63,291 nucleotides of DNA from Halanaerobiales bacterium (lineage in GTDB: Bacteria; Bacillota; Halanaerobiia; Halanaerobiales; M55B127). The notes under the pieces were generated by a model. It was not told the origin of the DNA. It made no database searches and saw only the letters and a list, made by a program, of their open reading frames with translations. Below are positions 41,349 to 63,116 of the stretch, in pieces. Both the position numbers and the translations under genes were made by a program. The stretch lies in NCBI GenBank assembly GCA_046482435.1, contig JAWOEZ010000023.1, positions 1 through 63,291 on the forward strand, read 5' to 3'. Within the stretch, counting starts at the first letter, position 1. Each line of letters starts with the position of its first letter.

Positions 41349-41367
41349 GAACTAGAAGGGGGCCAAA

Positions 41368-41910: not shown

Positions 41911-41930
41911 TAACAAAAAGGGTTGATAAT

Positions 41931-42986: not shown

Positions 42987-43041
42987 CTAAAAAATTTTGT
43001 CTTTTAAAAAACAGAAATAATGATAATAGAGGTTGATAAAT

Positions 43042-44217: not shown

Positions 44218-44236
44218 ATATTGTGGAGGCATAACA

Positions 44237-45040: not shown

Positions 45041-45066
45041 TAAATTTTTATGTGAGGAGAAAGTAA

Positions 45067-45933: not shown

Positions 45934-45965
45934 AAACTTCTCTAAATTTTTTTGAGGTGAAAATT

Positions 45966-46469: not shown

Positions 46470-46539
46470 ATTAAAAAGGGTTATTCGAGAAAATAAAGAA
46501 ATAAATAAATAAGATGTCATATAATAACAGGTGATAATT

Positions 46540-47034: not shown

Positions 47035-47088
47035 ATAAAATAGAACTAAGTTAAGAATAAAACAAGCAAATTAGAGGAGGAATAATTA

Positions 47089-47880: not shown

Positions 47881-47894
47881 ATGAGAGGTGTGAA

Positions 47895-48449
47895 ATGAAA
47901 AAGACATCTGAAATACTAAAAGAGTTAAGTACAGAGAGGTTGATATTAAAACCGATTTCAAGAGAATATACAGAAGCTCTCTTTAAACACCTATCTGACC
48001 CAGAAGTAACAAAATATATGGATATAGATACTATGGAAAACGTAAAAGAAGCGGAAGAAATAATTGATTATTATCTAGAAAAAGAAGATGACAGAACTTG
48101 TTATCGTTGGGCTATATTGAATAAAGAAAATAAAGAGTTTATGGGAACCTGTGGGTTTAACAGCTGGATAAGAAATAGAGCTAATAGAAGTGAAATAGGC
48201 TATGACCTTTCAAAGAAATACTGGGGTCAAGGTTATATGGCTGAAGCATTAGAAGTACTACTAAAACATGGATTTGAAGTTCTTGATGTTCACAGAATTG
48301 AAGCTATGGTTACAGAAGGAAATATATCAAGTTGTAAATTATTAGAGAAAATGAATTTTACAAAAGAAGGTCTATTAAGGGATTATAATTATTGGAAAGA
48401 TGGTTTTGTCAATGAATATATGTACTCACTTTTAGAAGAAGAATATTGA
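47895..48449 (+). CDS. GNAT N-acetyltransferase (RimJ/RimL-like, Acetyltransf_3)
   Basis: LSTERLILKPIS...PEVTKYM N-terminal pattern and YWGQGYMAEAL motif A. Confidence 0.85.
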   Translation: MKKTSEILKELSTERLILKPISREYTEALFKHLSDPEVTKYMDIDTMENVKEAEEIIDYYLEKEDDRTCYRWAILNKENKEFMGTCGFNSWIRNRANRSEIGYDLSKKYWGQGYMAEALEVLLKHGFEVLDVHRIEAMVTEGNISSCKLLEKMNFTKEGLLRDYNYWKDGFVNEYMYSLLEEEY

Positions 48450-48472
48450 AAATTATATATATAAGAAATACT

Positions 48473-48512
48473 ACCTCTTATGACTATTAAAATAGTTATA
48501 AGAGGTTTTTTG
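48473..48512 (+). terminator. strong Rho-independent terminator
   Basis: 16-nt arms acctcttatgactatt / aatagttataagaggt (15/16 paired) followed by tttttt. Confidence 0.8.
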
Positions 48513-48662
48513 TTTTAAAGAAGGGAAAATAGATATTTTAATTAAATATATATAGTAGTATTAAATAAATAATTGAGGGGTTATATAAGAAAAGAAAGAT
48601 TTAAAATTTCAGGTGGAAAATAAAATATATTTATTTAATTTGATCAAAAGGGGGGAACTTAG

Positions 48663-49571
48663 ATGGAAGTATATAATATTCAAGAAAAAGATTTGAATAA
48701 ATTTATATTATCAGCAAATGATAATCCTGATTTAAAAAGAACTGTAGAATCTTTGTGGAAAGACGGATTTTCTAAACCCGCTTGGTGTTTTGTTTTAGAA
48801 GAAGAAAAAATTATCGGCAGGATTGGATATTGGGCTTCCCCCGATAATAAAAGAGAAGTACGTATTTTTGGATTATTGTTACCCTGGGAAAGAGAAGATC
48901 TTCTGACAATAGGAGAAAAAATATTAACGGAAAGTTTGCAGAAAATGAAAAAGCAAGGAGCTAAGTACGTTAATTATCAAATACATACCGAGGAAGACAA
49001 ACCAGTAGATACACTTAAACAAATTTTTAAGCTTGCTGGAATGAAGCAAATTCAGGCAAAAAAGAGATACAAACTATCAAAGAAAACATATGAAAGTATA
49101 GCTAAAAATAGATTAAACTATAAATCTTTAAAAGAAGTTGGCAAAGATTTATTCATTGAAGTTATTAAGAAAGTTACGAGAGGTACATTAGATAAAGAAG
49201 ATGAATTGTCTGTTTCAAATTTAGGAGAGCAAAAAGATGCTAAAAATCATTTAAATAATTTAAAAGATATTGATTTTTCACCCCCAAATTGGTTCGTTGG
49301 CTATAAAAATAAAGAAATAGTTGGATTAGTTGTACCTCAAAAATTAAATAAAGAGTTAGGAACTATAAATTATATAGGAGTAGTTCCAGAGAAAAGAGGC
49401 CACGGTTATGTCATAGATTTATTAGATAAAGGAATAAAAAACTTATTTAATAGAAATATATTTAATATCATTGCTGATATAGATCGATCAAATTTTCCAA
49501 TGGAAAATGCTTTATTAAAATTGGGTTTTAAAGATGAGAAAGAGATATTTGTTAATAGATTGGTTTTGTGA
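48663..49571 (+). CDS. two-domain GNAT family acetyltransferase
   Basis: 302 aa. The C-terminal module has IGVVPEKRGHGYVIDLL...LKLGFK. Confidence 0.75.
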   Translation: MEVYNIQEKDLNKFILSANDNPDLKRTVESLWKDGFSKPAWCFVLEEEKIIGRIGYWASPDNKREVRIFGLLLPWEREDLLTIGEKILTESLQKMKKQGAKYVNYQIHTEEDKPVDTLKQIFKLAGMKQIQAKKRYKLSKKTYESIAKNRLNYKSLKEVGKDLFIEVIKKVTRGTLDKEDELSVSNLGEQKDAKNHLNNLKDIDFSPPNWFVGYKNKEIVGLVVPQKLNKELGTINYIGVVPEKRGHGYVIDLLDKGIKNLFNRNIFNIIADIDRSNFPMENALLKLGFKDEKEIFVNRLVL

Positions 49572-49773
49572 GACAAATTTAATAATTCATAGTGAAAATG
49601 TGAAAAGATTACGTATATAATATAAATATGAGTAAAAAATTAAAAATATTACACATGTTAAAATTCATTCTGTTCAGAAAAATTGAGTAAGATTCAAGTA
49701 GAATGAAAAAGTTATAACCCAAATCAAAAGTTAAGATATTTTTAAAAAATTTCTTTAATAAGGGAGAAAAACT

Positions 49774-50613
49774 ATGGATATAAAAACAATAATTAATTTA
49801 TCTAAAAAACCAAAATTATTTGAAAGAAGTGATCAAAAATTCTGGGATGATCCTCATATATCAAAAAAGATGTTAGAGGTTCATATTGATCCTGAATTTG
49901 ACGCTGCCAGTCGGTCTTATGAATTTATGGAAGAATCTATTGATTGGCTTGTTAATAGGGTATTAACCGAGGTAGATCAAAAAATACTAGATTTAGGCTG
50001 TGGACCCGGTTTTTATTCTCAGGGATTAGCAGAAAAGGGTTATTCAGTAACAGGAGTTGATCTATCTAAAAGGTCAATAGAATATGCTAAGGCACAAAAA
50101 GAAAGTGAAGAGTTGGATGTTGAATATAAGGTTCAGAACTTTTTAGAACTTGATTATGTCAAAAAATATGATGCGGTTATTATGATGTATTGTGAATTGG
50201 GGGCATTGACTAATCAGGAACGTGATAAGTTACTGGAGAAAGTTAATAATGCTTTAAAACCCGGTGGGCTATTTATATTTGATGTTTTTACTGCTAATAA
50301 ACGGGAAGAGCATGAACTTGATAAAAGCTGGGATGCTGTTAAACAAGGTTTTTGGGATGAGAACCCCTATTTATCTTTAACTGAGACATATTTTTATCCA
50401 GAAGCAGATACCTATTTAAATCAAACTATTGTTGTAAATGAAGATGACGAGATATCTTTATATAGGATCTATGAACATTACTATAATAAAGGAACAATAA
50501 CTAAAGTACTGGATAAATTCGGTTTTATAAATCATTCTTTTTATTCTGATTTAACTGGTAAAAAATATTCTCCTAACTCTAGGACTTTGGCAGTAGTAAC
50601 TGAAAAATTATAA
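49774..50613 (+). CDS. class I SAM-dependent methyltransferase
   Basis: ILDLGCGPGFYS motif I and LKPGGLFIFD. Confidence 0.88.
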   Translation: MDIKTIINLSKKPKLFERSDQKFWDDPHISKKMLEVHIDPEFDAASRSYEFMEESIDWLVNRVLTEVDQKILDLGCGPGFYSQGLAEKGYSVTGVDLSKRSIEYAKAQKESEELDVEYKVQNFLELDYVKKYDAVIMMYCELGALTNQERDKLLEKVNNALKPGGLFIFDVFTANKREEHELDKSWDAVKQGFWDENPYLSLTETYFYPEADTYLNQTIVVNEDDEISLYRIYEHYYNKGTITKVLDKFGFINHSFYSDLTGKKYSPNSRTLAVVTEKL

Positions 50614-50642
50614 TAAACGAAACTTAATAAAGGAGGGTTAAA

Positions 50643-51128
50643 ATGACAAAACTAACTGTTAAATTAGAAGATGTTATGGAGGCAATCGAACTGCAAACAA
50701 TGGAAAGCAATTATTTTTATTCTAAAAAAGATGGTAATGTTTACTTTATAACGGATGATGAATTAAGATCTGCAGAAGGTGATTATGATATAGAAGATTT
50801 TCCTGAATGGCAGCAAAAAAATATCAAACTTGCAGAAGATATTTTGTCAACAATGGATTATATTAGATTGCCTGATCGACTGGATATTGATGATTATAAA
50901 ATAATGGAAGCGTTTTGTCTTTCTATAGAAGATAAAGAGTTAAGAGATTTAATGTATAACTGTATAAAGGGCAGTGGGGCTTTTAGGAGGTTTAAAAATA
51001 ATATTCATAAGTACGGTATTGCTGACGATTGGTATGATTTTCAAGAAGAAATATATATTGAGATCGCCAAGGATTGGTGTAAAGAACATAATATAGAATA
51101 TATTGAAGGAGAGTACAATAATGACTAA
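50643..51128 (+). CDS. UPF0158 family protein
   Basis: GSGAFRRFKNNI...DDWYDF C-terminal signature, 161 aa. Confidence 0.75.
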   Translation: MTKLTVKLEDVMEAIELQTMESNYFYSKKDGNVYFITDDELRSAEGDYDIEDFPEWQQKNIKLAEDILSTMDYIRLPDRLDIDDYKIMEAFCLSIEDKELRDLMYNCIKGSGAFRRFKNNIHKYGIADDWYDFQEEIYIEIAKDWCKEHNIEYIEGEYNND

Positions 51129-51456
51129 AAAAGAAAAACTAAAAAATTACTCTGAGGAGGAGAGATTAGAGGATGCTGAAAAATGGATTTTTGACTATGA
51201 GGAGACTGATATAGAAAAAGCTTATTGTGATAGATATGGAGTAGATGTTTTTGCTGCCTCCCAAGAATTAAAATCCTTAGGATATTTTGAGACTGATGAG
51301 TCAGAGGATGATATATTTGACGGAGATGATAAACCGCAATCCTATATGGAAAGTCAATTTGAATTTATTTTGGGTTATACCTCAGGAGGAGTGCCCTATG
51401 GTATTAAAAAGGAAGATAATGATATAGATGATGGGGACCTGGAACTACCTTTTTAA
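51121..51456 (+). CDS. acidic hypothetical protein, translationally coupled to the UPF0158 gene
   Basis: 111 aa, D/E-rich. GAAGGAGAG precedes ATG 51121. Overlaps the upstream stop by 8 nt. Confidence 0.6.
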   Translation: MTKKEKLKNYSEEERLEDAEKWIFDYEETDIEKAYCDRYGVDVFAASQELKSLGYFETDESEDDIFDGDDKPQSYMESQFEFILGYTSGGVPYGIKKEDNDIDDGDLELPF

Positions 51457-51488
51457 ATAGAAAAAATATATGAGGGGGTATTTAGAAA

Positions 51489-52178
51489 TTGGAAAACTTA
51501 AAACAAACTTTAGAAAAGTTTTTAAAAGAACAAAAAGAAAGATTAGCAAAAAGTACTTATAATAAATATGATGATGTAATCACTTTATTTGAACATTATT
51601 TGAATGGATATGGTTATCAATATTTAGATGAAGAAAATCATGAAACATATGAAAAAATGATGTATAGCAAAAATAAGCAATATTGTGAAGTGTTTACTAT
51701 TGAACAAATAGGTCCGGGTGAGCTAGATGAATTCATGACTTATTTTATGATTAGAAAAGTAATGAGCAGTAAAGAATTATTGAAAAACACTGGTACTGTC
51801 CTGAGGAAATTTATAAAGTGGTTAAAAGAAAATTCATATATAGATGATAAAAAATTTGATATATTATATAGTGAGGTAAATGAAAATAAAGATGACTTAC
51901 CTAAAGTGGAAGAACTAGCTGATCTGTTCTTTGAGAATGGTAGAAGAAACAGTTTTTATGAATATGAGGAATATGAAGAAGATAATTTTCAAATTTCTAA
52001 AATTGGAAAAGGAAAACTTTGGTTGGAGTCATTTATGGAGGAAAATAAAAATGTTGGGCCTGTAAAAGTAACTGAAGAAATAAGTTCCTTAGCCCAGGAA
52101 GGTTGGTTAGTTTATCTTGTATTAGGTAAGTCAGGGAAGAACTGGTATATTATTGAAAGTGGCAATGTATATCCTTAG
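51489..52178 (+). CDS. hypothetical protein; N-terminal half reminiscent of the SAM-like core-binding domain of tyrosine recombinases, no catalytic domain
   Basis: 229 aa, TTG start after GAGGGGG. FLKEQKERLAKSTYNKY...EFMTYFMIRKV...VLRKFIKWLKENSYI pattern. A decayed paralogue lies at 33095-33590. Confidence 0.6.
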   Translation: MENLKQTLEKFLKEQKERLAKSTYNKYDDVITLFEHYLNGYGYQYLDEENHETYEKMMYSKNKQYCEVFTIEQIGPGELDEFMTYFMIRKVMSSKELLKNTGTVLRKFIKWLKENSYIDDKKFDILYSEVNENKDDLPKVEELADLFFENGRRNSFYEYEEYEEDNFQISKIGKGKLWLESFMEENKNVGPVKVTEEISSLAQEGWLVYLVLGKSGKNWYIIESGNVYP

Positions 52179-52505
52179 TAAATGATAAAATGATACTGTC
52201 AATAATCACCACTAAAGCATAGAGTGGGATGGTATTTTCTTGAGACAAAAAAGATAAAGAAACTGAATCAATTATTTAATAAAGGTGATAAGGGAGTATT
52301 AAAAAATAAACAAGATTAAAGGGTAAATAAACTAAGAGGAAAACTAATTTTAAATGGTACAGGAAAAAGCTAGTAAAGCATATATCTCTCAAATATAGCT
52401 TTTTAAAATATATAGCAATAAGGTTTTATTAAAGACTAACCCAAAAGAAATGAAGGATATTTGTCATGTGAAATAAGCTGTAAGGCATTTTAGGGAGGTG
52501 TTATT

Positions 52506-52922
52506 ATGGCTGGAATTATTTATAAACAGAATTCTTCTTTTACAGAAGATGATATATTATATTTATATGAAAATGTAGGATGGACTAATTATACGAAAAA
52601 TATAAAAAAACTAATGAGAGCTTTAAATAATTCCTTGTACATACTAACAGCGTGGGATGAAAATAAATTAGTTGGATTAATTCGAATTATTGGGGATGGA
52701 GAAACAATAATCTATATTCAGGATATTTTGGTCTTAAGTGAATATCAACGCCAGGGAATAGGTTCAAAATTATTGGAAACACTTCTTGATGAATATAAAA
52801 ATGTTAGACAGAAAGTTCTTTTAACTAATGAAACTGAAAAAACGAGATCATTTTATAAAGCAAATGGTTTTGAACCAGCTAATAAATCAAATCTTGTATC
52901 ATATGTACTAATTAATAATTGA
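52506..52922 (+). CDS. GNAT family N-acetyltransferase (138 aa)
   Basis: YQRQGIGSKLLETLL motif A and YKANGFE. Confidence 0.85.
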   Translation: MAGIIYKQNSSFTEDDILYLYENVGWTNYTKNIKKLMRALNNSLYILTAWDENKLVGLIRIIGDGETIIYIQDILVLSEYQRQGIGSKLLETLLDEYKNVRQKVLLTNETEKTRSFYKANGFEPANKSNLVSYVLINN

Positions 52923-52934
52923 AGGGGGATTATA

Positions 52935-53279
52935 ATGGCTTTAGATGAATTACAAAAGAAAAGAGTTAAGAAAATTTTAGATAAATTTTGTGAAGATCGT
53001 ATTCCAGATAGGGCTAAAGATCAAATTGAATTGGATTATAATATAAGAGGCAATTATGTGACCTTAATTGAAAAGCGTAGGTATTATAAAAATCCAAAAG
53101 AATGGATTAAACAGAAAATTGCTCAATTTAGATTTACACCAGAAGATAATAAATGGGCTTTATATTGGTGGAGACATACTGGGAAATGGTATAAATATAA
53201 GGAAGTTCAACCTAGTAATGATTTACAGGATTTAGTTAATGAAGTAGATAAAGATCCAACAGCCATTTTTTGGGGATAG
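52935..53279 (+). CDS. DUF3024-like protein
   Basis: 114 aa. KIAQFRFTPEDNKWALYWWRHTGKWYKY signature. Confidence 0.7.
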   Translation: MALDELQKKRVKKILDKFCEDRIPDRAKDQIELDYNIRGNYVTLIEKRRYYKNPKEWIKQKIAQFRFTPEDNKWALYWWRHTGKWYKYKEVQPSNDLQDLVNEVDKDPTAIFWG

Positions 53280-53280
53280 A

Positions 53281-53460
53281 CGTGGGCCAGCTTACTTTAC
53301 ATAATAAAGGATTCCCGTTATGCAAAAAACCGTGACTAATCTTCGAGACATACTCTCTGTCATAAAGTTTGTAATTACTTAGGTGAGTGTTTGGAAGCAA
53401 ACTTTGTGAAAGGCCTTGCGGCACTAGTAAGTCGGGAACCGTCGAGACGTTATTTGATAT
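53281..53460. repeat. post-ORF palindromic spacer, family 1 (element A)
   Basis: Starts 2 nt after the stop. Arms cataaagtttg (53361-53371) and caaactttgtg (53398-53408). Shares ctctgtcat..a..tttg with elements B and C. Ends with cgttatttga (53448-53457). Confidence 0.6.
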
Positions 53461-53511
53461 TTTACTGTAGAAGTTAAATGGAAAAAACTCCTGAAAATAT
53501 ATTTCAGAAGT

Positions 53512-53910
53512 TTAATCCGTCAATGGTGAGGTATTATGCTCTAACCATTTTACTAGTTGATTTTTATTTAATTTTTCTGCTGCAAGCTTAATCATTATTT
53601 TGTAAGTTTCTTTTTCTGAAGCAGTTATTTCAATACCATTTCTTTGCAGAAAAACATCCATAGCTACAAGAGCAATTCTTTTATTTCCATCTACAAAGGG
53701 ATGATTATTACACAGATGAAATCCATAAGCTGCAGCCATTTTAATTAGTGTATCATGCAAATATTTATCTTCGAAAGTGGTTTTAGGCAGTTTAAGTGCA
53801 GAATCAAGCAATTTTTTATCTCTAATTCCATACGTTCCACCATAAGTTTTGATTAGTTGGTTATGGAAAAATAAAATAATCTCTTTTGGAAGAAAGATTA
53901 TATTTTTCAA
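53512..53910 (-). CDS. doc: Doc (death-on-curing) Fic-fold toxin
   Basis: HPFVDGNKRIAL Doc-type motif, 132 aa. TTGA overlap with the upstream antitoxin gene. Confidence 0.9.
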   Translation of the reverse strand: MKNIIFLPKEIILFFHNQLIKTYGGTYGIRDKKLLDSALKLPKTTFEDKYLHDTLIKMAAAYGFHLCNNHPFVDGNKRIALVAMDVFLQRNGIEITASEKETYKIMIKLAAEKLNKNQLVKWLEHNTSPLTD

Positions 53911-54131
53911 TTTGATAATTCTTTCAAAGTATTTTTATATTTTTCATTTGTTTTATTAAATGACTTAGACCATTTTTCGAATTCGGGGTCATAAGGAGTT
54001 AATTTAAATCCGTCATTGTTTTCAATGACATGTAATTCTTCTCCTTCTTTTAGATTATATTTTTCCATAAGTTCTTTTGGTATTGTAAATCCGAAGCTAT
54101 TACCGACTTTACGGATTTTAATAGTTTTCAT
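53907..54131 (-). CDS. AbrB/MazE/SpoVT-type antitoxin
   Basis: IRKVGNSFGFTIPKELMEKYNLKEGEEL swapped-hairpin motif. ATG 54131 with GAGGTG 6 nt upstream (the track start GTG 54140 overlaps the RBS). Confidence 0.85.
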   Translation of the reverse strand: MKTIKIRKVGNSFGFTIPKELMEKYNLKEGEELHVIENNDGFKLTPYDPEFEKWSKSFNKTNEKYKNTLKELSN

Positions 54132-54216
54132 ATCAATCACCTCAATATTATTATAACATTTGTATTACATAATATGCAAGAAGAAAATAAAAGAAAAAAA
54201 CCACTTTTTAAGTAAG

Positions 54217-54369
54217 AGAGAAGACGGTACATAATACAGTGTTATCGTTACATCTGGAAACCAGCCTGCTTCGGATATCTTCTCTGTCATGACTTTTGCA
54301 TTTCTTTACAAAAGGCATGATAAAGAGCAAGTCAAGAATATTGGGGCCGTTATTTGAAATACGGTCAGC
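54217..54369. repeat. palindromic spacer, family 1 (element B)
   Basis: Arms tcatgacttttg (54287-54298) and caaaaggcatga (54309-54320), 11/12 paired. Outer agagaaga/tcttctct pair. Terminal ccgttatttgaaatacggtcagc (54347-54369). Confidence 0.6.
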
Positions 54370-54400
54370 ATTTTCATCTATGAAAGGGGTTTTAATATTA

Positions 54401-55330
54401 ATGAGTGCAGGTAGAAATGATCCTTGTCCTTGTGGTAGTGGTAAAAAATTTAAATATTGTTGTATAGATAAATTCAATTTTGAAAATAAGGAAAGAAAAG
54501 CTCATTGGTTTAAAAAAGAGATTGAGAACTATTCTATTGCAGAAATTATATTTAAACTGAGATATTTTGGTGTTGATGTTACTTATGATTCTTTTAAGGA
54601 AGAAATTAAATATTTTTATTCCGCTCAAGATTTATCTGAATATTGGTTTGATAAATATAATGTTAGTGCTACTGGTTTTGATGAAGATTTTATTTGGTTG
54701 GCAGCCTGGGTTCTTTGGGAAAGGATTCCAACTAAGATAATGTGTGATGAAGAGATAAGTAATATGATTAATAAAGGATATGATTTATCATCAGATGACA
54801 AATTATTTGATTGTTGTGATATATGGTTAAAAGCATGGAACGAGTTAAAAGCTCATTTTAAAGATGATAATATTAATTCTTTAAAAAAAGCGGATGAAAT
54901 TAATAAAGGAGACCAATATTTAAGCAATTGGTATCAATATTTAGATATGTATTTATCAAATGCTGGAATTAGAAATAAAGAATATTTTAAAAAGCGGATT
55001 AAATTTGTAAAAGATTTTCTTAATCTATTACCCGAAACAGAGGAAAAAAGAATAAAGGATATGCTAATAGCAGAAGCCGAGTCATATTTTGCAATAAAAA
55101 AGCTACAAAAAGGAGAAAAAAAGTTTAAAAATATAATAAGCAAATATCCAAATTGGGTATGGGGATATATAGGTTGGGGTGACATGTATGGACCATTTCG
55201 AATAAATAAAAATTTATCATCTGATTATAAAAAGGCAAAAAATATTTATGAAATGGCTTTTGATACAGATATAGATGATAAAGAAGAATTAGAGATATTA
55301 AATGAAAGGATAAATAGGCTTAAAAAGTAA
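54401..55330 (+). CDS. SEC-C motif domain protein
   Basis: MSAGRNDPCPCGSGKKFKYCC at the N-terminus. GAAAGGGG upstream of ATG 54401. The track ORF start 54296 runs through the spacer element. Confidence 0.8.
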   Translation: MSAGRNDPCPCGSGKKFKYCCIDKFNFENKERKAHWFKKEIENYSIAEIIFKLRYFGVDVTYDSFKEEIKYFYSAQDLSEYWFDKYNVSATGFDEDFIWLAAWVLWERIPTKIMCDEEISNMINKGYDLSSDDKLFDCCDIWLKAWNELKAHFKDDNINSLKKADEINKGDQYLSNWYQYLDMYLSNAGIRNKEYFKKRIKFVKDFLNLLPETEEKRIKDMLIAEAESYFAIKKLQKGEKKFKNIISKYPNWVWGYIGWGDMYGPFRINKNLSSDYKKAKNIYEMAFDTDIDDKEELEILNERINRLKK

Positions 55331-55470
55331 GCTGACCGTACGTTAGATGACATAGGATTGTCGTCATGACTTCTGTAATAAAGTTTGCAGGCAAACCAAT
55401 TATAGATATGGAAACGCAAGTTTTACGCCAGTTCCTGCGGAAACAAGCACGAGCGTGAATCCTGAGGATC
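55331..55470. repeat. post-ORF palindromic spacer, family 1 (element C)
   Basis: Begins at the first nt after the stop with gctgaccgta, the inverse of tacggtcagc at 54360-54369. Then cgttagatga, gtcgtcatgacttctgtaataaagtttgc, and gcaaac. Confidence 0.6.
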
Positions 55471-55514
55471 TTATATGAAATTAGTCCTTATTTAAATCCT
55501 CTTTAAAGAAAGGA

Positions 55515-56393
55515 ATGATTATGTTTTTAGAAGATATTTTAAAAAAGAAATTAGAAAATCGATGTAAAAACAATTTGAATAATTACGTTCAGTTGGTGGC
55601 TAATTGGTTTGCTTATGTAATCTTAAATAATAATAAACATGAAATAGATCATAGTCTTGATCCTCCTTGGGATAATTCAGGAATGATTACAGATATTGAC
55701 GAACAATTTGATTTAAATGATTATGCCACCTTTAATGATTTTATTGAAAGAGAATATACTGGTGAAAGTAATGCGAGTTATGTAAGTGGACACGGCATGT
55801 ATCATTATACTTATGAAGAACCATTTGAACAAATAACTCTAGAATGGTTAACCTCACAACTTTATTTAGTAATTAAAAGTTTAATTGAAAAAGAAAATAA
55901 GTATTTGGAAGAATGGGTTGAAAACAAAAATATTTCATTTAATATTAAAGCAGCTGATGACATAACAGATATTATTTTATTTGAAGATGTTGTTGGAGAC
56001 TTTTTTTATAGTTATGTTTGGGAAATAAAAGATAATGTATTAAATACACATCCTATTATTTTATTTAGCCGGGGGAAAGAAGAAGCAATAAATAAAATTA
56101 GAAAAGAAGAAATAAAACAGAAGGAGAGCCAAAAAGAGTTTCAAAAGAATAGAAAAAAAGCTGAATTTATATGGGAAAAGATTTTAAAAATGTATAAAAT
56201 AAAATATGGACATGAAATACCAAATAAAATTGAAAAGCCCTTATATGATAAGAAAGTAAAACAATTATTTATTGAATTATATAAAAATGGGGTTAATATT
56301 GAAGAAATTCAGAGTATAGGTAAGTTTTTAAGTTTTAGGTTTTCAAATTCCGTGAGTACATTAATCTCAAATTTCAATACACTTGAAGAGTGA
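55515..56393 (+). CDS. hypothetical protein (292 aa)
   Basis: Long ORF with an AAAGG RBS. No recognisable motif. Lys/Glu-rich helix near residue 200. Confidence 0.6.
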   Translation: MIMFLEDILKKKLENRCKNNLNNYVQLVANWFAYVILNNNKHEIDHSLDPPWDNSGMITDIDEQFDLNDYATFNDFIEREYTGESNASYVSGHGMYHYTYEEPFEQITLEWLTSQLYLVIKSLIEKENKYLEEWVENKNISFNIKAADDITDIILFEDVVGDFFYSYVWEIKDNVLNTHPIILFSRGKEEAINKIRKEEIKQKESQKEFQKNRKKAEFIWEKILKMYKIKYGHEIPNKIEKPLYDKKVKQLFIELYKNGVNIEEIQSIGKFLSFRFSNSVSTLISNFNTLEE

Positions 56394-56487
56394 AAAATGG
56401 GCTAATTTCATATAAAAGCAAGGTTTCAGTTTTCACTCCCTGTGGTCGCTTTATACAACATACTTAGTTTAAAAGGAGCTGAAGAAA

Positions 56488-57330
56488 GTGAGAAGACCAA
56501 AAGGTATTATGTTGATAGTTATATGTTTGTTTATTTTTTGGTCTGCTAGTATTATTGCTGAAAGTAAAATTATAAATAATAATACAATAGTATTTAAAAA
56601 TGTTAATATTATTCCTATGAATAAAAAAGGAATATTAAAAAATCGTTCAGTTATAATAAAAGATGAGATAATACAAAAAATTACTAGTAAGGGAAATTTA
56701 AATATTAATAAAGAAGCATATGTTATAGATGCTACTGGTAAGTATTTAATGCCTGGGTTATCAGATATGCATGTGCATATTAGAAACAAATCAGATTTAA
56801 AATTATTTTTAGCAAATGGAATTACAACTGTAAGGAATATGGCAGGACACAAAACACATTTAATATATAAAAAGAAAATAAATAATGGTGAAATTATAGG
56901 TCCAAATATTATTACTACTACTCCATTACTAGATGGTAATCCTCCTATTTATCCTCACGCAGATGTTTTATCAAATACTAAAGTAGCAAGAGAAACTGTG
57001 AGGGAATATAAAGAAAAGGGATATGACTATATTAAGGTATATGAAAAATTAAACAAAGAAGTTTATGATGCAATTATTGAAGAGGCTAAAAGACAAAATA
57101 TAGAAGTAGTTGGCCATGTACCAGACAAAGTTGGAATTAGAAATGTAATTTCATCAGGTCAAGTTTCAATAGAAGTTGGAAAGAAAACAGATATTGTTTT
57201 ATTAAACAAAAATCCTTTAAAAGATATAAAAAATACCAAAAGTATTGAGGGAGTATTAATAAGAGGAAAATGGTTGAATAAATCTTTTATTCAACATATG
57301 TTAGAAGAGATACCGCAAGACTGGTGGTAA
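56488..57330 (+). CDS. amidohydrolase-family protein carrying an apparent in-frame internal deletion
   Basis: Signal/TM, then LMPGLSDMHVHI metal motif...VVGHVPD...GQVSIE, joined directly to the C-terminal VGKKTDIVLLNKNPL motif. 280 aa, whereas such enzymes are typically about 400+ aa. Confidence 0.65.
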   Translation: MRRPKGIMLIVICLFIFWSASIIAESKIINNNTIVFKNVNIIPMNKKGILKNRSVIIKDEIIQKITSKGNLNINKEAYVIDATGKYLMPGLSDMHVHIRNKSDLKLFLANGITTVRNMAGHKTHLIYKKKINNGEIIGPNIITTTPLLDGNPPIYPHADVLSNTKVARETVREYKEKGYDYIKVYEKLNKEVYDAIIEEAKRQNIEVVGHVPDKVGIRNVISSGQVSIEVGKKTDIVLLNKNPLKDIKNTKSIEGVLIRGKWLNKSFIQHMLEEIPQDWW

Positions 57331-57440
57331 TATTGTCTAGGACGTCGTATAAAATAGGATTTTCGTTACGCTTAAGTTCGATCACTTTATTGGAAAGTAA
57401 CGTCGAAAATTCTAGAAACGTTTTTAGACATCCTAATATT
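57329..57440. repeat. post-ORF palindromic spacer, family 2
   Basis: Overlaps the stop codon. Paired segments: aatatt/aatatt, gtcta/tagac, acgt/acgt, attttc+gttac with gtaac+(gtc bulge)+gaaaat. Shares gtcgtataaaat and tttattggaaagtaac with the 58064-58179 element. Confidence 0.65.
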
Positions 57441-57486
57441 ATGTTTTTAATATAATTTTCATAAAAAAATGATAAGAGGGAATATA

Positions 57487-57954
57487 ATGGAGTATATTAA
57501 ATTCATCTTGTTTTTTATTTTGGCACATTCGGTTTCATACACAATAGCAGGTGCCATAGCCTTATCTATTAGTAAAGATATTTATGAAAGTAAAAGTAGG
57601 CATTGTGATTTTTTACGGGATATGTCAGATGAAGAAGAAAGCAAGTATGTTTCTATTTATTTTATACCTGCTCAAATTTTAAGAGGAGCATTAATGGCAA
57701 TGGTACTTTTCCCACTATTAAGTTCTATAGCAGCCCTTTCTTTTGGGATAAGTATTATTTTTTTTGGTAGTTTAATGTTTGTTTATACACATATAGCCGC
57801 TGCATCACCTTTTATTGATAATATTGAGGGCTATGTTTATTTTAAAAAGAATTATTTAATGAAAAAATATTTTATAAAATTCCAGTTAGAAATGGTTTTA
57901 TATAGTATTTTATTTGGTTTGTTTATGACTGTTCTTATGGGTTTTGTTTTCTAA
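57487..57954 (+). CDS. small integral membrane protein (4 TM)
   Basis: 155 aa from ATG 57487 (AGAGGG upstream). Four hydrophobic spans. No family recognised. Confidence 0.6.
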   Translation: MEYIKFILFFILAHSVSYTIAGAIALSISKDIYESKSRHCDFLRDMSDEEESKYVSIYFIPAQILRGALMAMVLFPLLSSIAALSFGISIIFFGSLMFVYTHIAAASPFIDNIEGYVYFKKNYLMKKYFIKFQLEMVLYSILFGLFMTVLMGFVF

Positions 57955-58063
57955 AAATAGTTTTTTGTATATTATAAAAATAGCTCTTAATTTTTAGATA
58001 ACTCATATTTTAAATTTATTTTCTAAAACATTATGTTCCATAATATTATGTTTTGAAAATGAC

Positions 58064-58179
58064 ACATGTCGTATAAAATTAGCTTAGCGACATATGAGTT
58101 TTACTAGAATGTTAGAAATGACTTACATCAGGTATTTACGAATAAGATTGATTTTATTGGAAGTAAACCCAGATGTCGC
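58064..58179. repeat. palindromic spacer, family 2
   Basis: Arms gcgacatatgagttttact (58087-58105) and agtaaacccagatgtcgc (58162-58179). A small hairpin atgtcg/cgacat lies upstream. Confidence 0.65.
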
Positions 58180-58210
58180 CAAGTGCAAGGACTTTACAAG
58201 ATATGATTCT

Positions 58211-58316
58211 ATAAACATGTTCATTAGATGGATGAATGAATATATTTATGGTAAAATGAATAGATTTATGGTATAATAAACATAGTCATAAACAAAGCAA
58301 ATGAATATGTTTATAG
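58211..58316 (+). promoter_or_regulatory. putative fic promoter flanked by four copies of a 15-16-nt motif ATGAATAKRTTTATRG
   Basis: Direct copies at 58236-58251, 58256-58271 and 58301-58316, plus an inverted copy at 58211-58225. Extended -10 TGGTATAAT at 58269-58277. Confidence 0.5.
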
Positions 58317-58332
58317 AGGAGTGAATACATTT

Positions 58333-59379
58333 ATGATGTCATTTAGAGATGAGAAACTTAAGACTGTAGCGATTCCTATGAATATAGTCAAACTAATTGG
58401 TAAGATAAATGAATATAAGGGAAAACAAAACTTATATTTAGACCAAGCACCACAGGTATTAGAGAAGTTAAAAGAAGCAGCGATTGTTCAAAGTACCAAA
58501 TCTTCTAATAGTATTGAGGGGATTGTTATTACTGATAAGCGATTAAAAGAAATAATGAAAGATGATACTATGCCTAATGATCGTTCTGAAGGTGAGATTG
58601 CAGGATATAGAGATGTATTAAATAGTATTCATACTTCTTATGATGCTATCCCTATAAATACAAGTATAATTTTACAATTTCATAAAAATTTATATAAGTT
58701 TGTTTCAGCTGAGGGTGGGAAATGGAAAAATCAAGATAATGTGATTGAAGAGATATTACCTAATGGTGAAAGATATGTTAGATTTAGGCCTTTATCTGCA
58801 GCTGAAACTCCAAGAGCTATGGAAGAATTATGTGATTATTTAAACCGAGCGATGAAAGAAGAGAATATTGAACCACTAATATTAATAGGAGCTTTTGTTT
58901 TAGACTTTTTGAGCATTCATCCTTTTAATGATGGAAACGGACGAATGGCAAGGTTATTGACTTTATTATTATTATATAAATATAATTATAAGGTTGGGAG
59001 ATATATAAGTTTAGAAAAAATCATTGAAGAGAGCAAATCAAATTATTATGAAGTATTAAAGAAATCTTCAGTAGGTTGGCATGAAGGCCACCATAATCTT
59101 TTTATTTGGTTAGATTATTTTTTAGGTACTATATTAGCCGCATATAAAGAATTTGAAGATAGAGTAGGATTAGTTAGAAACAAAAGAGGCAATAAAAGTT
59201 ATAGGGTTGAACAAGCTATAAAAAGCACATTAGGAACTTTTGAGAAGGAAGATATTAGAAATACATGTCCGGACGTTTCAGAATCTACAATTAATAGAGT
59301 TTTTAAAAAGTTAAAAGAAGAAGGAGTAATTGAGTTATTAGGTAAAGGTCGTAATGCAAAGTGGAAAAGATTAGAATAA
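58333..59379 (+). CDS. Fic family protein (Fic_N + Fic + C-terminal wHTH)
   Basis: HPFNDGNGRMARLL active-site motif. N-terminal SNSIEG fits the inhibitory (S/T)xxxE(G/N) helix. The track start is GTG 58321; the first in-frame ATG is 58333. Confidence 0.9.
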   Translation: MMSFRDEKLKTVAIPMNIVKLIGKINEYKGKQNLYLDQAPQVLEKLKEAAIVQSTKSSNSIEGIVITDKRLKEIMKDDTMPNDRSEGEIAGYRDVLNSIHTSYDAIPINTSIILQFHKNLYKFVSAEGGKWKNQDNVIEEILPNGERYVRFRPLSAAETPRAMEELCDYLNRAMKEENIEPLILIGAFVLDFLSIHPFNDGNGRMARLLTLLLLYKYNYKVGRYISLEKIIEESKSNYYEVLKKSSVGWHEGHHNLFIWLDYFLGTILAAYKEFEDRVGLVRNKRGNKSYRVEQAIKSTLGTFEKEDIRNTCPDVSESTINRVFKKLKEEGVIELLGKGRNAKWKRLE

Positions 59380-59380
59380 A

Positions 59381-59532
59381 GTTGAGGTACTTCGTCTAAT
59401 ACGACTTTAGCGACATCTAAGTTGTTGTAAGAAGCTGCCGAGAAGACTTATATTAACTGTATTATTTTCAAGGAAAAGATCTGTTTAATCAGAGTAAGCT
59501 CAGAAGTTGCTAAGTCCAGGGAGGTTAGCCAA
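59381..59532. repeat. post-ORF palindromic spacer, family 2
   Basis: Starts 2 nt after the stop with GTTGAGG and ends with AGCCAAC. Inner arms gactttagcgacatctaag (59403-59421) and ctcagaagttgctaagtc (59499-59516), about 15/18 paired with one bulge. Confidence 0.65.
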
Positions 59533-59567
59533 CAGGAACATATGAATTTTTGCTTAGGGGGAAAGAT

Positions 59568-60341
59568 ATGATTACTGATGCACATATGCATATTATATTT
59601 GATAAAGACAAGCATGGTAATTCAGAAGAGAATTTTTTTACCTTTGTTGAAAGTGTGATTCAAAAAATGAAAAACAATTCTATTTCTAGCGGTATTTTAG
59701 CCCAAGGAGTTCCTTTGAATTTATTAGATAAAACATTAAAAAGATATCCTAATTGGTTTAAAGGTTTATTACCGATAGGTAATGATTTAGAGTTAAATAA
59801 AAAGAACATTGAAAAGTTTTCAAAAAACCCAAATATCGTTGGGGTAAAAATATATCCAAATGTATTTAAAGATAGTGAAATCATAAAAAATATACAACCA
59901 ATAAAAAAGGATATTGAAAATAATAATTGGATAGTTCAAATTCATTCAAATCCTGTAGTTAAATCTGATATAGGAATACCTTTAGAAATAGTAGAACTAG
60001 CCACCAAAACCAATTTGCCAATAGTTATGGTTCATAGTGGTGGCCATCAATTTCAACAATTAAGCAGTTGGATTAATCATACTCCAGAAAATTTGTATTT
60101 TGATACATCGGCTATTCAAAATATATTTGAAGACAGCCCATATTTACCGCATTTAAAATGGTTTTTAAAGAAGATACCTGAAGGACGTTTGTTTTGGGGA
60201 AGTGATTTTCCTGATTATTCATTTGAAAAAGCACTAAATTCTTTTGAAAAAATAGAACTTGATGAGAATCTAAAGAATAATATTTTAGACTTTTTAAAGA
60301 AAAATACAGATACCAATGTGGAATTATTAATGAATAATTAA
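59568..60341 (+). CDS. TIM-barrel metal-dependent hydrolase (Amidohydro_2-like)
   Basis: MITDAHMHII start (HxH), VMVHSGG and GSDFPD. AGGGGG precedes ATG 59568. Confidence 0.8.
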   Translation: MITDAHMHIIFDKDKHGNSEENFFTFVESVIQKMKNNSISSGILAQGVPLNLLDKTLKRYPNWFKGLLPIGNDLELNKKNIEKFSKNPNIVGVKIYPNVFKDSEIIKNIQPIKKDIENNNWIVQIHSNPVVKSDIGIPLEIVELATKTNLPIVMVHSGGHQFQQLSSWINHTPENLYFDTSAIQNIFEDSPYLPHLKWFLKKIPEGRLFWGSDFPDYSFEKALNSFEKIELDENLKNNILDFLKKNTDTNVELLMNN

Positions 60342-60511
60342 TACACCAATTTTGTCTAAATTAGTATTTATGTTATGTCTAAAATATAGTTTACATATGG
60401 ACATAGCCATTGTCAGCTAGCAAGTAAGGAGTTATTGTTGCTTCCTTTATTGCAATGGCAATGTTGTATATACCAACAATATTATTAAACAATAGAATTG
60501 AGGGGTATATC

Positions 60512-61468
60512 TTGAGTATTAAATTCATTTTTGATCAAGTAGAAAATGCATTATATATTTTAGCAAAACAAAATAAAAACAAAACAATAAACAAGTCTGT
60601 TTGGGATAACTTATTTTCAAGTGAAGGGTATCAACTGTTAGTAAAAAGAGAGAAGGATATGGGAAATGAATTAAGTAAAAAAGATTTTAAATCATTCTTA
60701 CTTGATGAAAGACAGTTAAGTAATTATGAAAACTATATGAATACTTTGAAACTGTTGAAAGACCTTGAATTAGAGCAATTATTATCAAAAACAAAAAAGT
60801 ATCTTCCTAAAAAAGCTAAAATAAATACAACAATAATCCCAGTAATAAAACCACAAAATAATAGTTTTGTACATGAAATAAATGATAAATTAGTATTATT
60901 TATATATTTAGAACCCGGCATGTCTAGAGCTAAATTAGAAAATAAACTAATACACGAATTACACCATATTGGGTTTGATGATATATACAGTCCCGAAAAA
61001 TATAAATACTTATCACAACAGACTCAAAAAATGATTGAATGGACAAATGCATTTGGAGAAGGTTTTGCAATGTTAGCTGCAGCTGGAGGAGCAAATATTC
61101 ATCCCAATAAATTTGATGAAGGTTTAAAAGAGAAATGGGATTCTAATATTAAAAAGTTTAATAAAGATTTTGAATTGATAGAGAATTTCTTTGTAAAAAT
61201 TTTAAAAGATAAGTTTTCTAACGAAAAGGAATTATACAATAGGGGATATGAATTAATGGTTAACAATGGGGGCCAAGGTTCATGGTATACAGTCGGTTGG
61301 AAAATTGCAGTAGTTATTGAAAAAATAAAAGGAAAAGAAGTATTGTTTGGTTGTATGTCGGATTTAACTTATTTATATCCAAGATATAATGAAGCAGTAA
61401 AGGATTATAATAAAAAGTATAATGAAAATCTGAAAAGTTGGTCAGATAAAATAATAAATTCTTTTTAA
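60512..61468 (+). CDS. putative zinc-dependent peptidase (HExxH; DUF5700-like)
   Basis: LIHELHHIG motif. TTG 60512 follows GAGGGG; the track ATG 60455 lacks an RBS. Confidence 0.65.
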   Translation: MSIKFIFDQVENALYILAKQNKNKTINKSVWDNLFSSEGYQLLVKREKDMGNELSKKDFKSFLLDERQLSNYENYMNTLKLLKDLELEQLLSKTKKYLPKKAKINTTIIPVIKPQNNSFVHEINDKLVLFIYLEPGMSRAKLENKLIHELHHIGFDDIYSPEKYKYLSQQTQKMIEWTNAFGEGFAMLAAAGGANIHPNKFDEGLKEKWDSNIKKFNKDFELIENFFVKILKDKFSNEKELYNRGYELMVNNGGQGSWYTVGWKIAVVIEKIKGKEVLFGCMSDLTYLYPRYNEAVKDYNKKYNENLKSWSDKIINSF

Positions 61469-61653
61469 AAATGATATTGATTGAAAACATGGCATTTCCA
61501 AAAGGATTAAAGATCAGCTTACGTTTCGGGACAGTACTTTTTTACATGAATGGTGAAAGTAATATGAATACTAAAATCCTAACAATTTTTAAGGGGTAGG
61601 TGAGGATAATAGAGACTTTAGACAAAATCATTATAATATTTAAGGGTGATATA

Positions 61654-62301
61654 ATGGAAGAATTGTTTTTTGGTGTATATAAAATACCGTTAACAATAAA
61701 CGGAATAATTAATATTACAAAAGAACAATTAGAAAAGAAAATTAAAAGAGCTCAATTACGACTAAAAGAATTTTCTGTTAAATATGGTTGGGAAGATTAT
61801 ATTAAAGAACCCTTTTTAAAAAATGTTTTCATTTATGATAAACAATCAAAATTAATAAATAAATTAGTTGAAATCAGCAATTTAAATAAAGAAGATTTTC
61901 CTGAGAAGATTTCAGCTGTAATTAATAATAAGAACTTATATATTCTTTCTCCTGAAAACTATTTAAGAGTTTATCCTGAAGGTGAAGAAGTTAAATCTTA
62001 CGAGAAACTAATTACACATGAATTAGCACATGAACTTCATATGAGAATATTAGGTGGGAAAGAAGAATTAATGGGGCCTATATGGTTTTATGAAGGTTTT
62101 GCAGTATTTGCAGCTGATCAATTCAAAAATTATAAACTGGAAACATCAGAGATATGGGAAGTTATAAATTCTGAGAAAAGAATTACTTATAAATATTATG
62201 GAGCTATTATAAGGTTTCTTTTAAATAAGGTAACCTTAAACCAACTTGTAAAAAAGGCAAAAAAAGAAGATTTTGTAGATTGGGTAAAGAATTTGTATTA
62301 A
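61654..62301 (+). CDS. putative metallopeptidase-like protein (HExxH)
   Basis: ITHELAHELH motif followed by FYEGFA. Alternative GTG start at 61600. Confidence 0.6.
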   Translation: MEELFFGVYKIPLTINGIINITKEQLEKKIKRAQLRLKEFSVKYGWEDYIKEPFLKNVFIYDKQSKLINKLVEISNLNKEDFPEKISAVINNKNLYILSPENYLRVYPEGEEVKSYEKLITHELAHELHMRILGGKEELMGPIWFYEGFAVFAADQFKNYKLETSEIWEVINSEKRITYKYYGAIIRFLLNKVTLNQLVKKAKKEDFVDWVKNLY

Positions 62302-62424
62302 TATAATTAATAATAACAAAAACATCCTAACTTAAGGCTACTTAAGTAGAGTTAAACAAAAGTATAACTGTACATAAGTACTTATCATATTGATAAAAAT
62401 GAAAATTCATTGGGGGTTTCACAT

Positions 62425-62742
62425 ATGGAAATTTCTGAACTGCAAGGAGAAGTATCTGAATTTGTTAAAGAATAGGAACTAGAAAGAAAAATAGAAATTA
62501 GATTGCTTGATCTTATGTCCGAGTTAGGAGAGTTATCTAAAGAAAGTTTAAAAAGTTCTGATTATGGAAAAGCAAAATTTAAGCCGACCGATAAATGGGT
62601 TAATGAATTAGGAGATGTTTTATTTTCTTTGCTTTGTGTAGCAAATAATACTGAAGTTGATTTAGAAGTAGCTTTGAATAAGGCACTTAATAAATACAGA
62701 AAAAGATTTAATAAAAAAGGAAATATAGGTTCTGAAAAATAA
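62425..62742 (+). pseudogene. MazG-like nucleotide pyrophosphohydrolase interrupted by one in-frame TAG
   Basis: MEISELQGEVSEFVKE-TAG(62473-62475)-ELERKIEIRLLDLMSELGELSKE...ELGDVLFSLL. The stop sits where MazG proteins normally continue. Same frame as track ORF 62503-62742. Confidence 0.7.
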
Positions 62743-62747
62743 AAAGT

Positions 62748-62830
62748 GTTTAGGTAATAATTCGTATAACAATGTCTTAGTGTCATCTGATCTAATGGGA
62801 TGAATGAGATTCCTTATATTAGCCTTTAAC
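62748..62830. repeat. post-ORF spacer, family 2
   Basis: Starts with GTTTAGG and ends with CCTTTAAC. tcgtataacaatgtcttagtgtcatctga (62762-62790) is 22/29 identical by hand count to 58069-58097. Confidence 0.55.
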
Positions 62831-63032
62831 ATTTATATGAAAGTTTAGTTTTATAAGAGTAAGTTTAGAAATCCCATAGTTTAAAGATATTAGTTCAAAT
62901 ACAACAGAGAGACGAGCAATCCTTGTTCTAATTATTGATAGGATGAGTATTTGAAAGCTTAATACAAAATTGTTTAAATTGTAAAATGAAAAACTTTTAT
63001 AAAACAAACAGGAATTCAAGGAGGAAATTACG

Positions 63033-63116
63033 ATGAGTAAATCAATCAGAACAGATATTACAATACGTCCCAAAACCCATAAAGATTATAAAGATATTGT
63101 ATCTTGTAAGTGTTAA
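63033..63116 (+). pseudogene. 5' fragment of a GNAT-like gene (27 codons)
   Basis: AGGAGG RBS, then MSKSIRTDITIRPKTHKDYKDIVS (typical GNAT N-terminus), then CKC-stop. Possibly truncated by an insertion starting near 63105. Confidence 0.35.

Follow-up and report, generated by a model that had tools for sequence, protein, structure and literature searches.

A probable decayed gene-cassette array of an integron-like system with a non-IntI integrase in a Halanaerobiales bacterium

Towards its right end, a contig of 63,291 nucleotides from a Halanaerobiales bacterium (GenBank assembly GCA_046482435.1, contig JAWOEZ010000023.1; the whole stretch is called the window here) carries a succession of short gene modules separated by palindromic spacers. 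Judged from comparison with related genomes, the region between 52.2 and 63.1 kb is very probably the decayed, sedentary gene-cassette array of an integron-like system whose integrase is not IntI. A cassette array had been suggested in a first-pass annotation made from the sequence alone, and that suggestion is strengthened by attC architecture, covarying stems, strain differences that comprise whole cassettes, and a rule linking neighboring sites (the junction rule). The same annotation allowed for a non-canonical recombinase or site, in keeping with the integrase of related arrays, which lacks the IntI-specific domain.

Long related palindromes had been described in seven of the spacers, and alignment, a sequence profile, and a covariance model (CM) all bear this out. 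The seven elements align as a single family in which a box at either end (5' and 3') is conserved, and the profile recovers exactly seven copies in the window, all on the + strand and none between 1 and 52 kb. The CM was trained on 17 Halanaerobiales copies, including six from the window; within the window it detects those six, S11 (E 0.03), which was outside the training set, and S4 (E 0.7), with no others. The window therefore holds 7-8 imperfect hairpins of 80-160 nt within 9.6 kb, which begin 0-14 nt past a stop codon and finish ~25-50 nt before the next start codon, with S6 and S11 as exceptions. The attC-like sites, all on the + strand, are S1 (53293-53462, 91.7 bits, R'' TACATAAT at 53298-53305, R' GTTATTTG at 53449-53456), S2 (54223-54362, 69.2 bits, R'' at 54228-54235, R' GTTATTTG at 54349-54356), S3 (55339-55483, 69.2 bits, R'' TAGATGAC at 55344-55351, R' CTTATATG at 55470-55477), S5 (57341-57433, 46.5 bits, R'' CGTATAAA at 57346-57353, R' GTTTTTAG at 57420-57427), S6 (58065-58206, 89.9 bits, R'' CGTATAAA at 58070-58077, R' CTTTACAA at 58192-58199), and S7 (59388-59537, 98.3 bits, R'' CGTCTAAT at 59393-59400, R' GTTAGCCA at 59524-59531), the last being homologous to the site after the Fic gene in contigs L009 and L006. 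S11 (62758-62902, 19.1 bits) combines an intact R'' (CGTATAAC, 62763-62770) with a degenerate 3' half. The earlier description granted the four other spacers at most weak similarity, which is accurate for S8, S9, and S10 (no site by profile or CM), while S4 (56404-56463, + strand, 13.7 bits) is a short, degenerate, borderline case. Its R'' (CATATAAA) is the complement of the S3 R' at 7/8 positions and its R' (TTTATACA) matches the S5 R'' at 7/8; since the junction rule survives on both sides (S3 to S4 and S4 to S5), S4 is supported as a real, shrunken site. The two sequence families proposed earlier do exist as groups (window S1-S3 and L014b/c versus window S6, S7, L006, L014a, and L018a), but they are subfamilies of one family that differ mainly in the center. 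The central segment reads GACTTATGAAA... in one and GTCATGACTTCTGTCATAAAGTTTGCA...CGCCAGTTCCTG in the other, and because both versions are common to several genera, the 'variable' center is not free to vary.

The anatomy of the sites is clearest in relatives, where boxes of the TAAC...GTTA type surround an imperfect palindrome with L boxes, as in attC sites (RYYYAAC...GTTRRRY); the boxes of the window are degenerate. Clean copies run from R'' (e.g., CATATAAC) through a single base A, the L'' stem, a variable center, the L' stem, and an unpaired GGGAC to R' (GTTATACG), and the consensus consists of R'' YRYATAAC, 1-2 nt, L'' ... L', an unpaired 5-nt GGGAC, and R' GTTAnnnn, with an R''-to-R' length of 81-157 nt. 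The mirrored GTT...AAC order noted in the first-pass annotation is incidental: the real boxes follow the canonical order, with ..AAC towards the 5' end and GTT.. towards the 3' end, and have mutated in the window. The outer boxes GTTGAGG...AGCCAAC were rejected as site boxes because they are not conserved in the alignments, and consensus pattern searches with up to 3 mismatches failed, the copies being too divergent. Base pairing is preserved in 80.9% of cells among the 17 training sites, compared with 71.6% in column shuffles (0/500 shuffles reach the observed value) and 31-42% when the partners are slid, and 12 pairs change on both sides. The 33 best independent sites from other genomes give 85.5% against 69.4% shuffled and 27-51% slid, with compensatory changes in 19 of 23 pairs and TAAC/GTTA near-invariant (kept in 30-32 of the 33). 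Mismatches at alignment columns 22/160 and 30/154 are also conserved, as are the unequal spacers of 1 nt and 5 nt.

Conserved hairpins just past stop codons could also be transcription terminators, attenuators, or a structured RNA element, but several observations make this reading extremely improbable. As described earlier for the spacers, the sites lack a U-tract (they carry no T-tract), and a promoter and terminator scan of the array found no enrichment (5 terminator-like sites versus 2.9 expected). ARAGORN and Rfam returned nothing for the array, the latter at gathering thresholds and even at E<0.1. S1 and S2 are both in + orientation around an inverted toxin-antitoxin (TA) pair, and the TAAC/GTTA boxes, their counterpart at an attI-like site, and the junction rule (both described below) are features of DNA recombination rather than of transcripts.

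Two mobile-element alternatives raised in the first-pass annotation do not hold up against the distribution of the sites. The idea that they are repetitive extragenic palindromes or bacterial interspersed mosaic elements (REP/BIME), spread by a RAYT-type transposase, draws on their being intergenic imperfect palindromes without a U-tract; it is exceedingly unlikely given zero copies in the 52 kb upstream, despite the many intergenic regions there, the single orientation, the length of 80-160 nt with a variable center, the occurrence of sites almost only downstream of the integrase, and the junction rule, which it leaves unexplained. In the loci for which gene lists were read, no called gene was of the RAYT or IS200 kind. 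Debris of miniature inverted-repeat transposable elements (MITEs), inserted repeatedly between genes, would account for hairpin-forming repeats with conserved ends and would suit the insertion sequence (IS) elements and group II intron genes found in related arrays. This too is hardly credible, as the orientation is fixed relative to the array, the position is regular (from the stop codon to ~30 nt before the next start), and the unit exchanged at GTTA is a whole gene plus site rather than the hairpin alone; the alignments that were read show neither target-site duplications nor terminal inverted repeats at the site boundaries, although no dedicated search was made for them.

Consecutive sites are related to one another by a rule. 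In classical integrons, the sequence that follows G|TT is already part of the next cassette and so pairs with the R'' that this cassette itself carries. In the sites studied here, the four variable R' bases are perfectly complementary to the R'' of the following site at 20 of 30 junctions, and to the R'' of the same site in 1 of 34 cases (permutation p<5e-5). Desulfitobacterium sp. Sab5, with an attI and 11 sites, has perfect junctions at 10 of 11, and the rule extends to first cassettes in individual strains (in L014, attI GTTATATG precedes a first site with CATATAAC; in L018, attI GTTATGTG precedes one with CACATAAC). The reverse complement of the attI GTTAnnnn occurs within 4 kb downstream in 29 of 37 loci, followed by L''-like sequence, compared with 4 of 37 in the upstream control, and because it recurs in loci missed by the CM, arrays also exist there. 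The junction rule is the signature of integron cassettes.

Contrary to the earlier view that the window holds no integrase, a tyrosine recombinase pseudogene of 217 nt lies at the head of the array (52247-52463, + strand), with 78% nucleotide identity to L009:5435-5654, inside a 331-aa recombinase gene. A tblastn search with an intact 343-aa integrase aligned window positions 52248-52367 to residues 46-85 (47.5% identity, internal stop). The 229-aa open reading frame (ORF) at 51489-52178 was considered as the N-terminal half of the integrase and rejected, having neither Pfam/NCBIfam support nor a tblastn match to the integrase. Contigs L009 and L010, found via close Fic homologues, are 86-89% identical to window 45.5-50.6 kb and carry the 331-aa recombinase gene on the array strand directly after the methyltransferase gene (window 49774-50613), followed by three more recombinase genes and then a Fic cassette with its repeat. 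These three genes (L009:6414-9602; also in L008 and L010-L013) are tandem, partly overlapping tyrosine recombinase genes of 412, 330, and 288 aa that resemble a recombinase-in-trio element; the trio has inserted into the array integrase gene at its 3' end, and the displaced gene end with attI lies before the Fic cassette (L009:~9740-9860). Contigs L014-L021 contain an intact 343-aa integrase gene in the same rnr-smpB and nitroreductase/GNAT neighborhood, followed by different cassettes.

The intact integrase passes NF040815, the model for XerA-type site-specific tyrosine recombinases/integron integrases (244 bits versus a cut-off of 220), and fails the IntI model TIGR02249 (199.5 bits versus a cut-off of 265, with the match split in two). 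The catalytic R..K..HxxR..H..Y residues are conserved in 63 homologues. The best structural matches of the predicted model are XerA and IntI4; in the comparison with the Vibrio IntI4 structure (2a3v), chain residues 183-238 are skipped against 14 in the query, so that the IntI-specific insertion of ~42 residues is missing. The family shares a conserved N-terminal domain of ~60 aa, predicted to fold as beta-beta-alpha-beta-beta-alpha, and full-length lambda integrase aligns over nearly the whole integrase model; the N-terminal domain could conceivably be an arm-type DNA-binding domain, a tentative suggestion drawn from the predicted structure.

Downstream of the intact integrase gene, seven contigs are base-identical for ~85 nt past the stop codon, to ...AGATAAGAGAGTTAT, and then split into two unrelated continuations. 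Strain comparison, which the first-pass annotation had put forward as a check, shows that near-identical Halanaerobiales strains differ by whole cassettes, breaking exactly at GTTA: they are the same up to GAGAGTTAT and then have different first cassettes, and two assembly unitigs end exactly at this attI break point. Contigs L018 and L014, for example, are 99.95% identical over the 4 kb leading to attI, have different first cassettes with a 90%-identical repeat, and diverge again at the GTTA of that repeat; one cassette has here taken the place of another at a fixed site. In other genera, five sister-genome sets likewise diverge right after GTTA. In nearly all integrase-centered loci, two or three short repeats occur 60-140 nt past the stop codon, followed by, e.g., AGACGTTAT or AGTAGTTAG, and the attI-like site can be described as a GTTA preceded by a purine-rich spacer and, before that, by two or three short repeats, palindromic or direct. 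An attI beside the integrase with insertion at GTT, as expected of an integron, is thus found, at a position 3' of the gene that is unlike the classical one. The attI repeat motif resembles the L'' box of the same lineage (Paenibacillus TTCACGAAGTTCGTGAA with ATTCACGC; Halonatronum/Orenia AACGACAT..ATGTCGTT with TTAGCGACATC), and this likeness within lineages suggests that one protein surface reads both the attI repeat and the L'' box.

The relatives show the layout of live versions, in which a 343-360-aa XerA/IntI-like tyrosine recombinase is transcribed towards the array, with an attI-like site 60-140 nt past its stop codon and each cassette ending in an attC-like site of 80-160 nt. Cassettes would enter and leave as circles, with crossover at or beside GTT, as the junction rule implies; given such a crossover, the distal part of a cassette's own R' box would come to lie at the 5' end of that cassette.

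The system is widespread. Scanning genomes with the N-terminal half of the integrase as query yielded 80 loci (in Clostridia, Halanaerobiales, Desulfitobacterium, Paenibacillus, Cohnella, and others), in which the CM gave 45 matches, 41 of them downstream on the integrase strand, a portion that makes up 13% of the space searched. Clostridium is among the genera in which integrase and arrays occur together. The 11 sites of Desulfitobacterium sp. Sab5 lie within 9 kb, each preceded by a short ORF, and the site geometry (1-2 nt versus the 5-nt GGGAC spacer) is constant from Halanaerobiales to Desulfitobacterium. In L047, from a Halobacteroidaceae metagenome-assembled genome, sites (5398-5545, 9246-9393, and 11049-11194 (- strand)) are found upstream of the integrase as well, with one inverted copy right after its stop codon; the integrase gene may lie inside an array or be inverted there. 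Outside Bacillota, a Chryseobacterium sp. plasmid (NZ_CP041688; L102:8968-11507) encodes a full-length integrase homologue with 44% identity, including the N-terminal domain, followed by co-oriented small genes and one attC-like site after a RidA gene (40.8 bits); because of this homologue and its site, the system is taken to be present on a Bacteroidota plasmid too. The chances are about even that these loci represent an undescribed, phylum-wide integron family of Bacillota (with at least one Bacteroidota plasmid copy), whose integrase would branch off the Xer/IntI stem without the I2 domain, carry an N-terminal DNA-binding domain instead, and act on an attI 3' of its gene and on sites with a geometry of their own. 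No published description of such a system was found in an incomplete search of the literature.

The array could instead be an ordinary CALIN (attC sites clustered without an integron integrase), with attC sites of the standard kind on which a classical IntI encoded elsewhere acts, and with an adjacent Xer-like recombinase that is coincidental. The AAC/GTT-type R boxes and the length of 81-157 nt, which is within the attC range, agree with this, as do the few CALINs that IntegronFinder 2 reports in Firmicutes (PMC9024848). It is nevertheless highly unlikely: no IntI-type gene occurs in any of the ~100 loci, whereas the Xer-like gene heads arrays in many genera, a conserved attI lies at its 3' end exactly where strains diverge, and the attI repeat motifs resemble the L-box motif of sites from the same lineage. 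The conservation of site geometry from Halanaerobiales to Desulfitobacterium and the failure of the CM to score the attC sites of a class 2 integron point the same way; a classical IntI may act from elsewhere in some genomes, but none is needed to explain the data.

A further possibility involves IS91-family elements: the sites would be their ends or targets, and the array would have grown by rolling-circle, one-ended transposition. IS91-family transposase genes do occur inside related arrays, in some cases together with a short integrase paralogue of 44% identity that has no N-terminal domain, but most integrase-headed arrays have no IS91, nor does the window. In Sporohalobacter salinus (L006:6553-7997), such a gene sits like a cassette between two attC-like sites, and its 5' end, TTGTACA, matches its own R'' (CGTACAAC, in the site that follows) at 7/8 positions; an IS91 origin of the array is accordingly very improbable. 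Four Sporohalobacter sites (L006:3665-, 9226-, 11197-, and 14025-) are all followed by GTTGCATGTCCAGCG(AAGCTGGACAT...), a common sequence that may be an element targeting their GTT.

The integron-like reading of the array has points against it. The entire case consists of comparative sequence evidence. The window boxes are mutated, the junction rule is kept there only at S3 to S4 and S4 to S5 (7/8 each), and by itself the window would not be proof; sites are absent from three or four spacers, and some modules comprise two genes or, as with Fic, bring a regulatory repeat of their own, which sets them apart from typical promoterless cassettes. The CM was trained on a single lineage, and matches within one array are non-independent. 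It leaves the canonical attC sites of a class 2 integron unscored and was therefore dropped as a bridge to classical attC sites; the geometry probably differs from that of canonical attC, since the model does not score them. Folding of whole spacers as single-stranded DNA, another check named in the first-pass annotation, is only modestly better than shuffled controls (z ~+1.7 to -3 in ten spacers, S10 excepted), and structural support is taken from covariation instead. A passage in PMC7790495 credits the IntI-specific domain with having enabled single-strand recombination, and since the array integrase is without that domain, recombination of hairpins cannot be assumed.

Within the window, the array is a fossil that corresponds to a CALIN headed by an integrase pseudogene, as indicated by mutated boxes, missing sites, the integrase remnant, and broken genes (an amidohydrolase with an internal deletion, MazG interrupted by an in-frame TAG, and a GNAT stub). 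The AAC of R'' is lost in six of seven sites (S1, S2, S5, S6, and S7 read AAT or AAA, and S3 reads TGAC), with changes of C to T three times, C to A twice, and A to G once, and the G of R' is lost in S3 and S6. The R'' losses appear to exceed what the ~12% divergence from relatives predicts, and could result from selection for fixed cassettes, hairpin-associated mutation, or changed specificity. The array is probably frozen, unless another integrase copy acts in trans. At least two clustered attC sites with no integrase nearby define a CALIN, and the window qualifies only under a broad reading of 'attC'. The clade of L008-L013 is at earlier stages of the same decay, with the integrase split by the three-recombinase element or frameshifted.

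The modules and cargo listed in the first-pass annotation, including the inverted TA pair, agree with the Pfam assignments. Between 52.5 and 63.1 kb, every gene is on the + strand except the Doc/MazE-type pair. Module 1 comprises a GNAT acetyltransferase (52506-52922) and a DUF3024 protein (52935-53279), both assigned by Pfam, and module 2, inverted on the - strand and bracketed by S1 and S2 in + orientation, comprises a Doc toxin (53512-53910) and a MazE/AbrB-type antitoxin (53907-54140), likewise from Pfam. These are followed on the + strand by a SEC-C motif protein (module 3, 54401-55330; Pfam), which occurs as an exact protein on Logan contig L003 as well, a hypothetical protein of 292 aa with no significant family (module 4, 55515-56393), an amidohydrolase with an internal deletion (module 5, 56488-57330; partial Amidohydro_1 and Amidohydro_3 matches), and a small membrane protein without a Pfam match (module 6, 57487-57954). 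Module 7 (58208-59379, + strand) consists of a Fic-HTH gene (58333-59379; Pfam) and its own 54-nt inverted repeat upstream (58208-58317). It recurs with 83-88% nucleotide identity in four contexts (L004, L006, L008, and L009), with homology beginning at 58207-58235 (58207-58212 in L006, L008, and L009), just 3' of S6, and the window protein is 91% identical to a Halarsenatibacter homologue and 88% identical to one from Sporohalobacter. These identities by themselves make an origin of the window within Halanaerobiales, Firmicutes that possess an outer membrane, most likely. The inverted repeat, which has TAAACAT/ATGAATA motifs, has been conserved alongside the gene across four genera (L004, L006, L009, and the window) and for that reason is probably the gene's own operator or promoter.

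The remaining modules, again on the + strand, are an Amidohydro_2 protein (module 8, 59568-60341; Pfam), a DUF5700 putative zinc peptidase (module 9, 60512-61468; Pfam), and an HExxH protein (module 10, 61654-62301), which are followed by the siteless spacers S8, S9, and S10, respectively, and then a MazG pseudogene (module 11, 62425-62742) with a TAG codon at 62473-62475. The HExxH cassette protein had no relative in a genome scan of 185,579 species. In the sibling-strain contig L001, the TAG is TAT (Tyr) and the 105-aa MazG gene is intact; only three differences separate window and L001 in 2.2 kb (62475, 62486, and 62491), all inside a 17-nt stretch of the MazG gene, and one of them makes the TAG. 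The GNAT stub (63034-63104, + strand) is truncated at 63104/63105. L001 is 99.86% identical to the window through 63104 and unrelated afterwards, so that the stub ends at the same base in both strains with unrelated sequence beyond it in each, and this position is a rearrangement or insertion hot spot at the right edge of the array. The first 28 nt of the same contig (L001:1-28) are identical to window 163-190 and are then joined to window 60894 inside the DUF5700 gene; window 1-200 resembles the 3' end of a structured element present in multiple copies, perhaps a group II intron (with a weak, sub-threshold Rfam match to sot0042, 34 bits). Exact matches to window proteins were found only on 2-kb Logan contigs of sibling strains.

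Upstream, 40 kb of core chromosome (SHMT, RND pump, Na+-pyrophosphatase, RNase R, and SmpB) gives way to co-oriented accessory genes. This accessory block (39873-52178, from smpB to the integrase remnant) spans 12 kb with five GNATs, a nitroreductase, a methyltransferase, and others, has no attC-like sites, and is partly syntenic in relatives, with three genes (50643-52178) missing from L009. The cargo of the array (GNATs, inverted TA pair, Fic/Doc, MazG, and DUFs) fits a sedentary array, as does its + GC skew, by which the leading-strand template carries the coding strand's complement, an arrangement shared with most sedentary chromosomal integrons (PMC5371416).

Among known systems, the arrays share with sedentary chromosomal integrons a tyrosine recombinase heading a co-oriented array of mostly single-gene cassettes, an imperfect hairpin site at the end of each cassette (..AAC 5', GTT.. 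3'), probable crossover at GTT in attI and sites, cassette 5' ends complementary to their own R'', TA pairs and GNATs as cargo, and strain-level cassette variation. The closest comparison is with integrons of the 'inverted integrase' type (e.g., Treponema denticola). Unlike integrons, the array integrase lacks the ~42-aa IntI-specific domain and has an extra N-terminal domain of ~60 aa, attI lies just 3' of its gene, the R/L spacers of the sites are asymmetric (1-2 nt versus unpaired GGGAC), the L boxes show lineage-specific sequence conservation, and the hosts found here are Bacillota. On this sequence-based comparison, the system would be an integron in function, but not a member by the accepted definition (IntI with its extra domain). 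Like CALINs, the window has a cluster of attC-like sites without a functional integrase and with degraded sites and genes, as has been proposed for CALINs, but its sites belong to a non-IntI system and an integrase remnant is still present at the array head. Xer-type recombinases also move discrete gene modules in the pdif modules of Acinetobacter plasmids and in CTX phage, the latter using a folded single-stranded hairpin substrate without an IntI-type domain; those systems rely on host XerC/D and 28-bp dif-like sites, and are not known to have a dedicated integrase with an attI of its own or long arrays of co-oriented hairpin sites. An 'Integron-like' subgroup of simple tyrosine recombinases, without the IntI insertion and linked to IS91 and IS3, has been described with no cassette function or arrays (Smyshlyaev et al., 10.1101/542381). 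Its members resemble the array integrase as close IntI relatives without the insertion, and the short IS91-linked paralogue in L008 is 44% identical to it, but the array integrase differs in having an N-terminal domain and no Y2 transposase partner, and in heading cassette arrays.

The IntegronFinder survey reported one complete integron in all Firmicutes, a gap that its authors called unexplained (PMC9024848). The present analysis suggests that this gap is partly definitional, as surveys rely on the IntI-specific domain, and that a sister-type integrase, invisible to IntI-based tools, heads arrays in Halanaerobiales, Clostridia, Desulfitobacterium, Paenibacillus, and Cohnella. The window itself illustrates the erosion of sites and genes after integrase loss. 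If the reading is correct, these arrays would represent a large unexplored pool of mobile cassettes in Gram-positive bacteria, a natural test of the need for the IntI I2 domain in hairpin-site recombination, and a second, independent set of tools for shuffling cassettes in organisms in which classical integrons fail to establish. Should the phylum-wide family prove real, it would overturn the view of Gram-positive bacteria as essentially integron-free.

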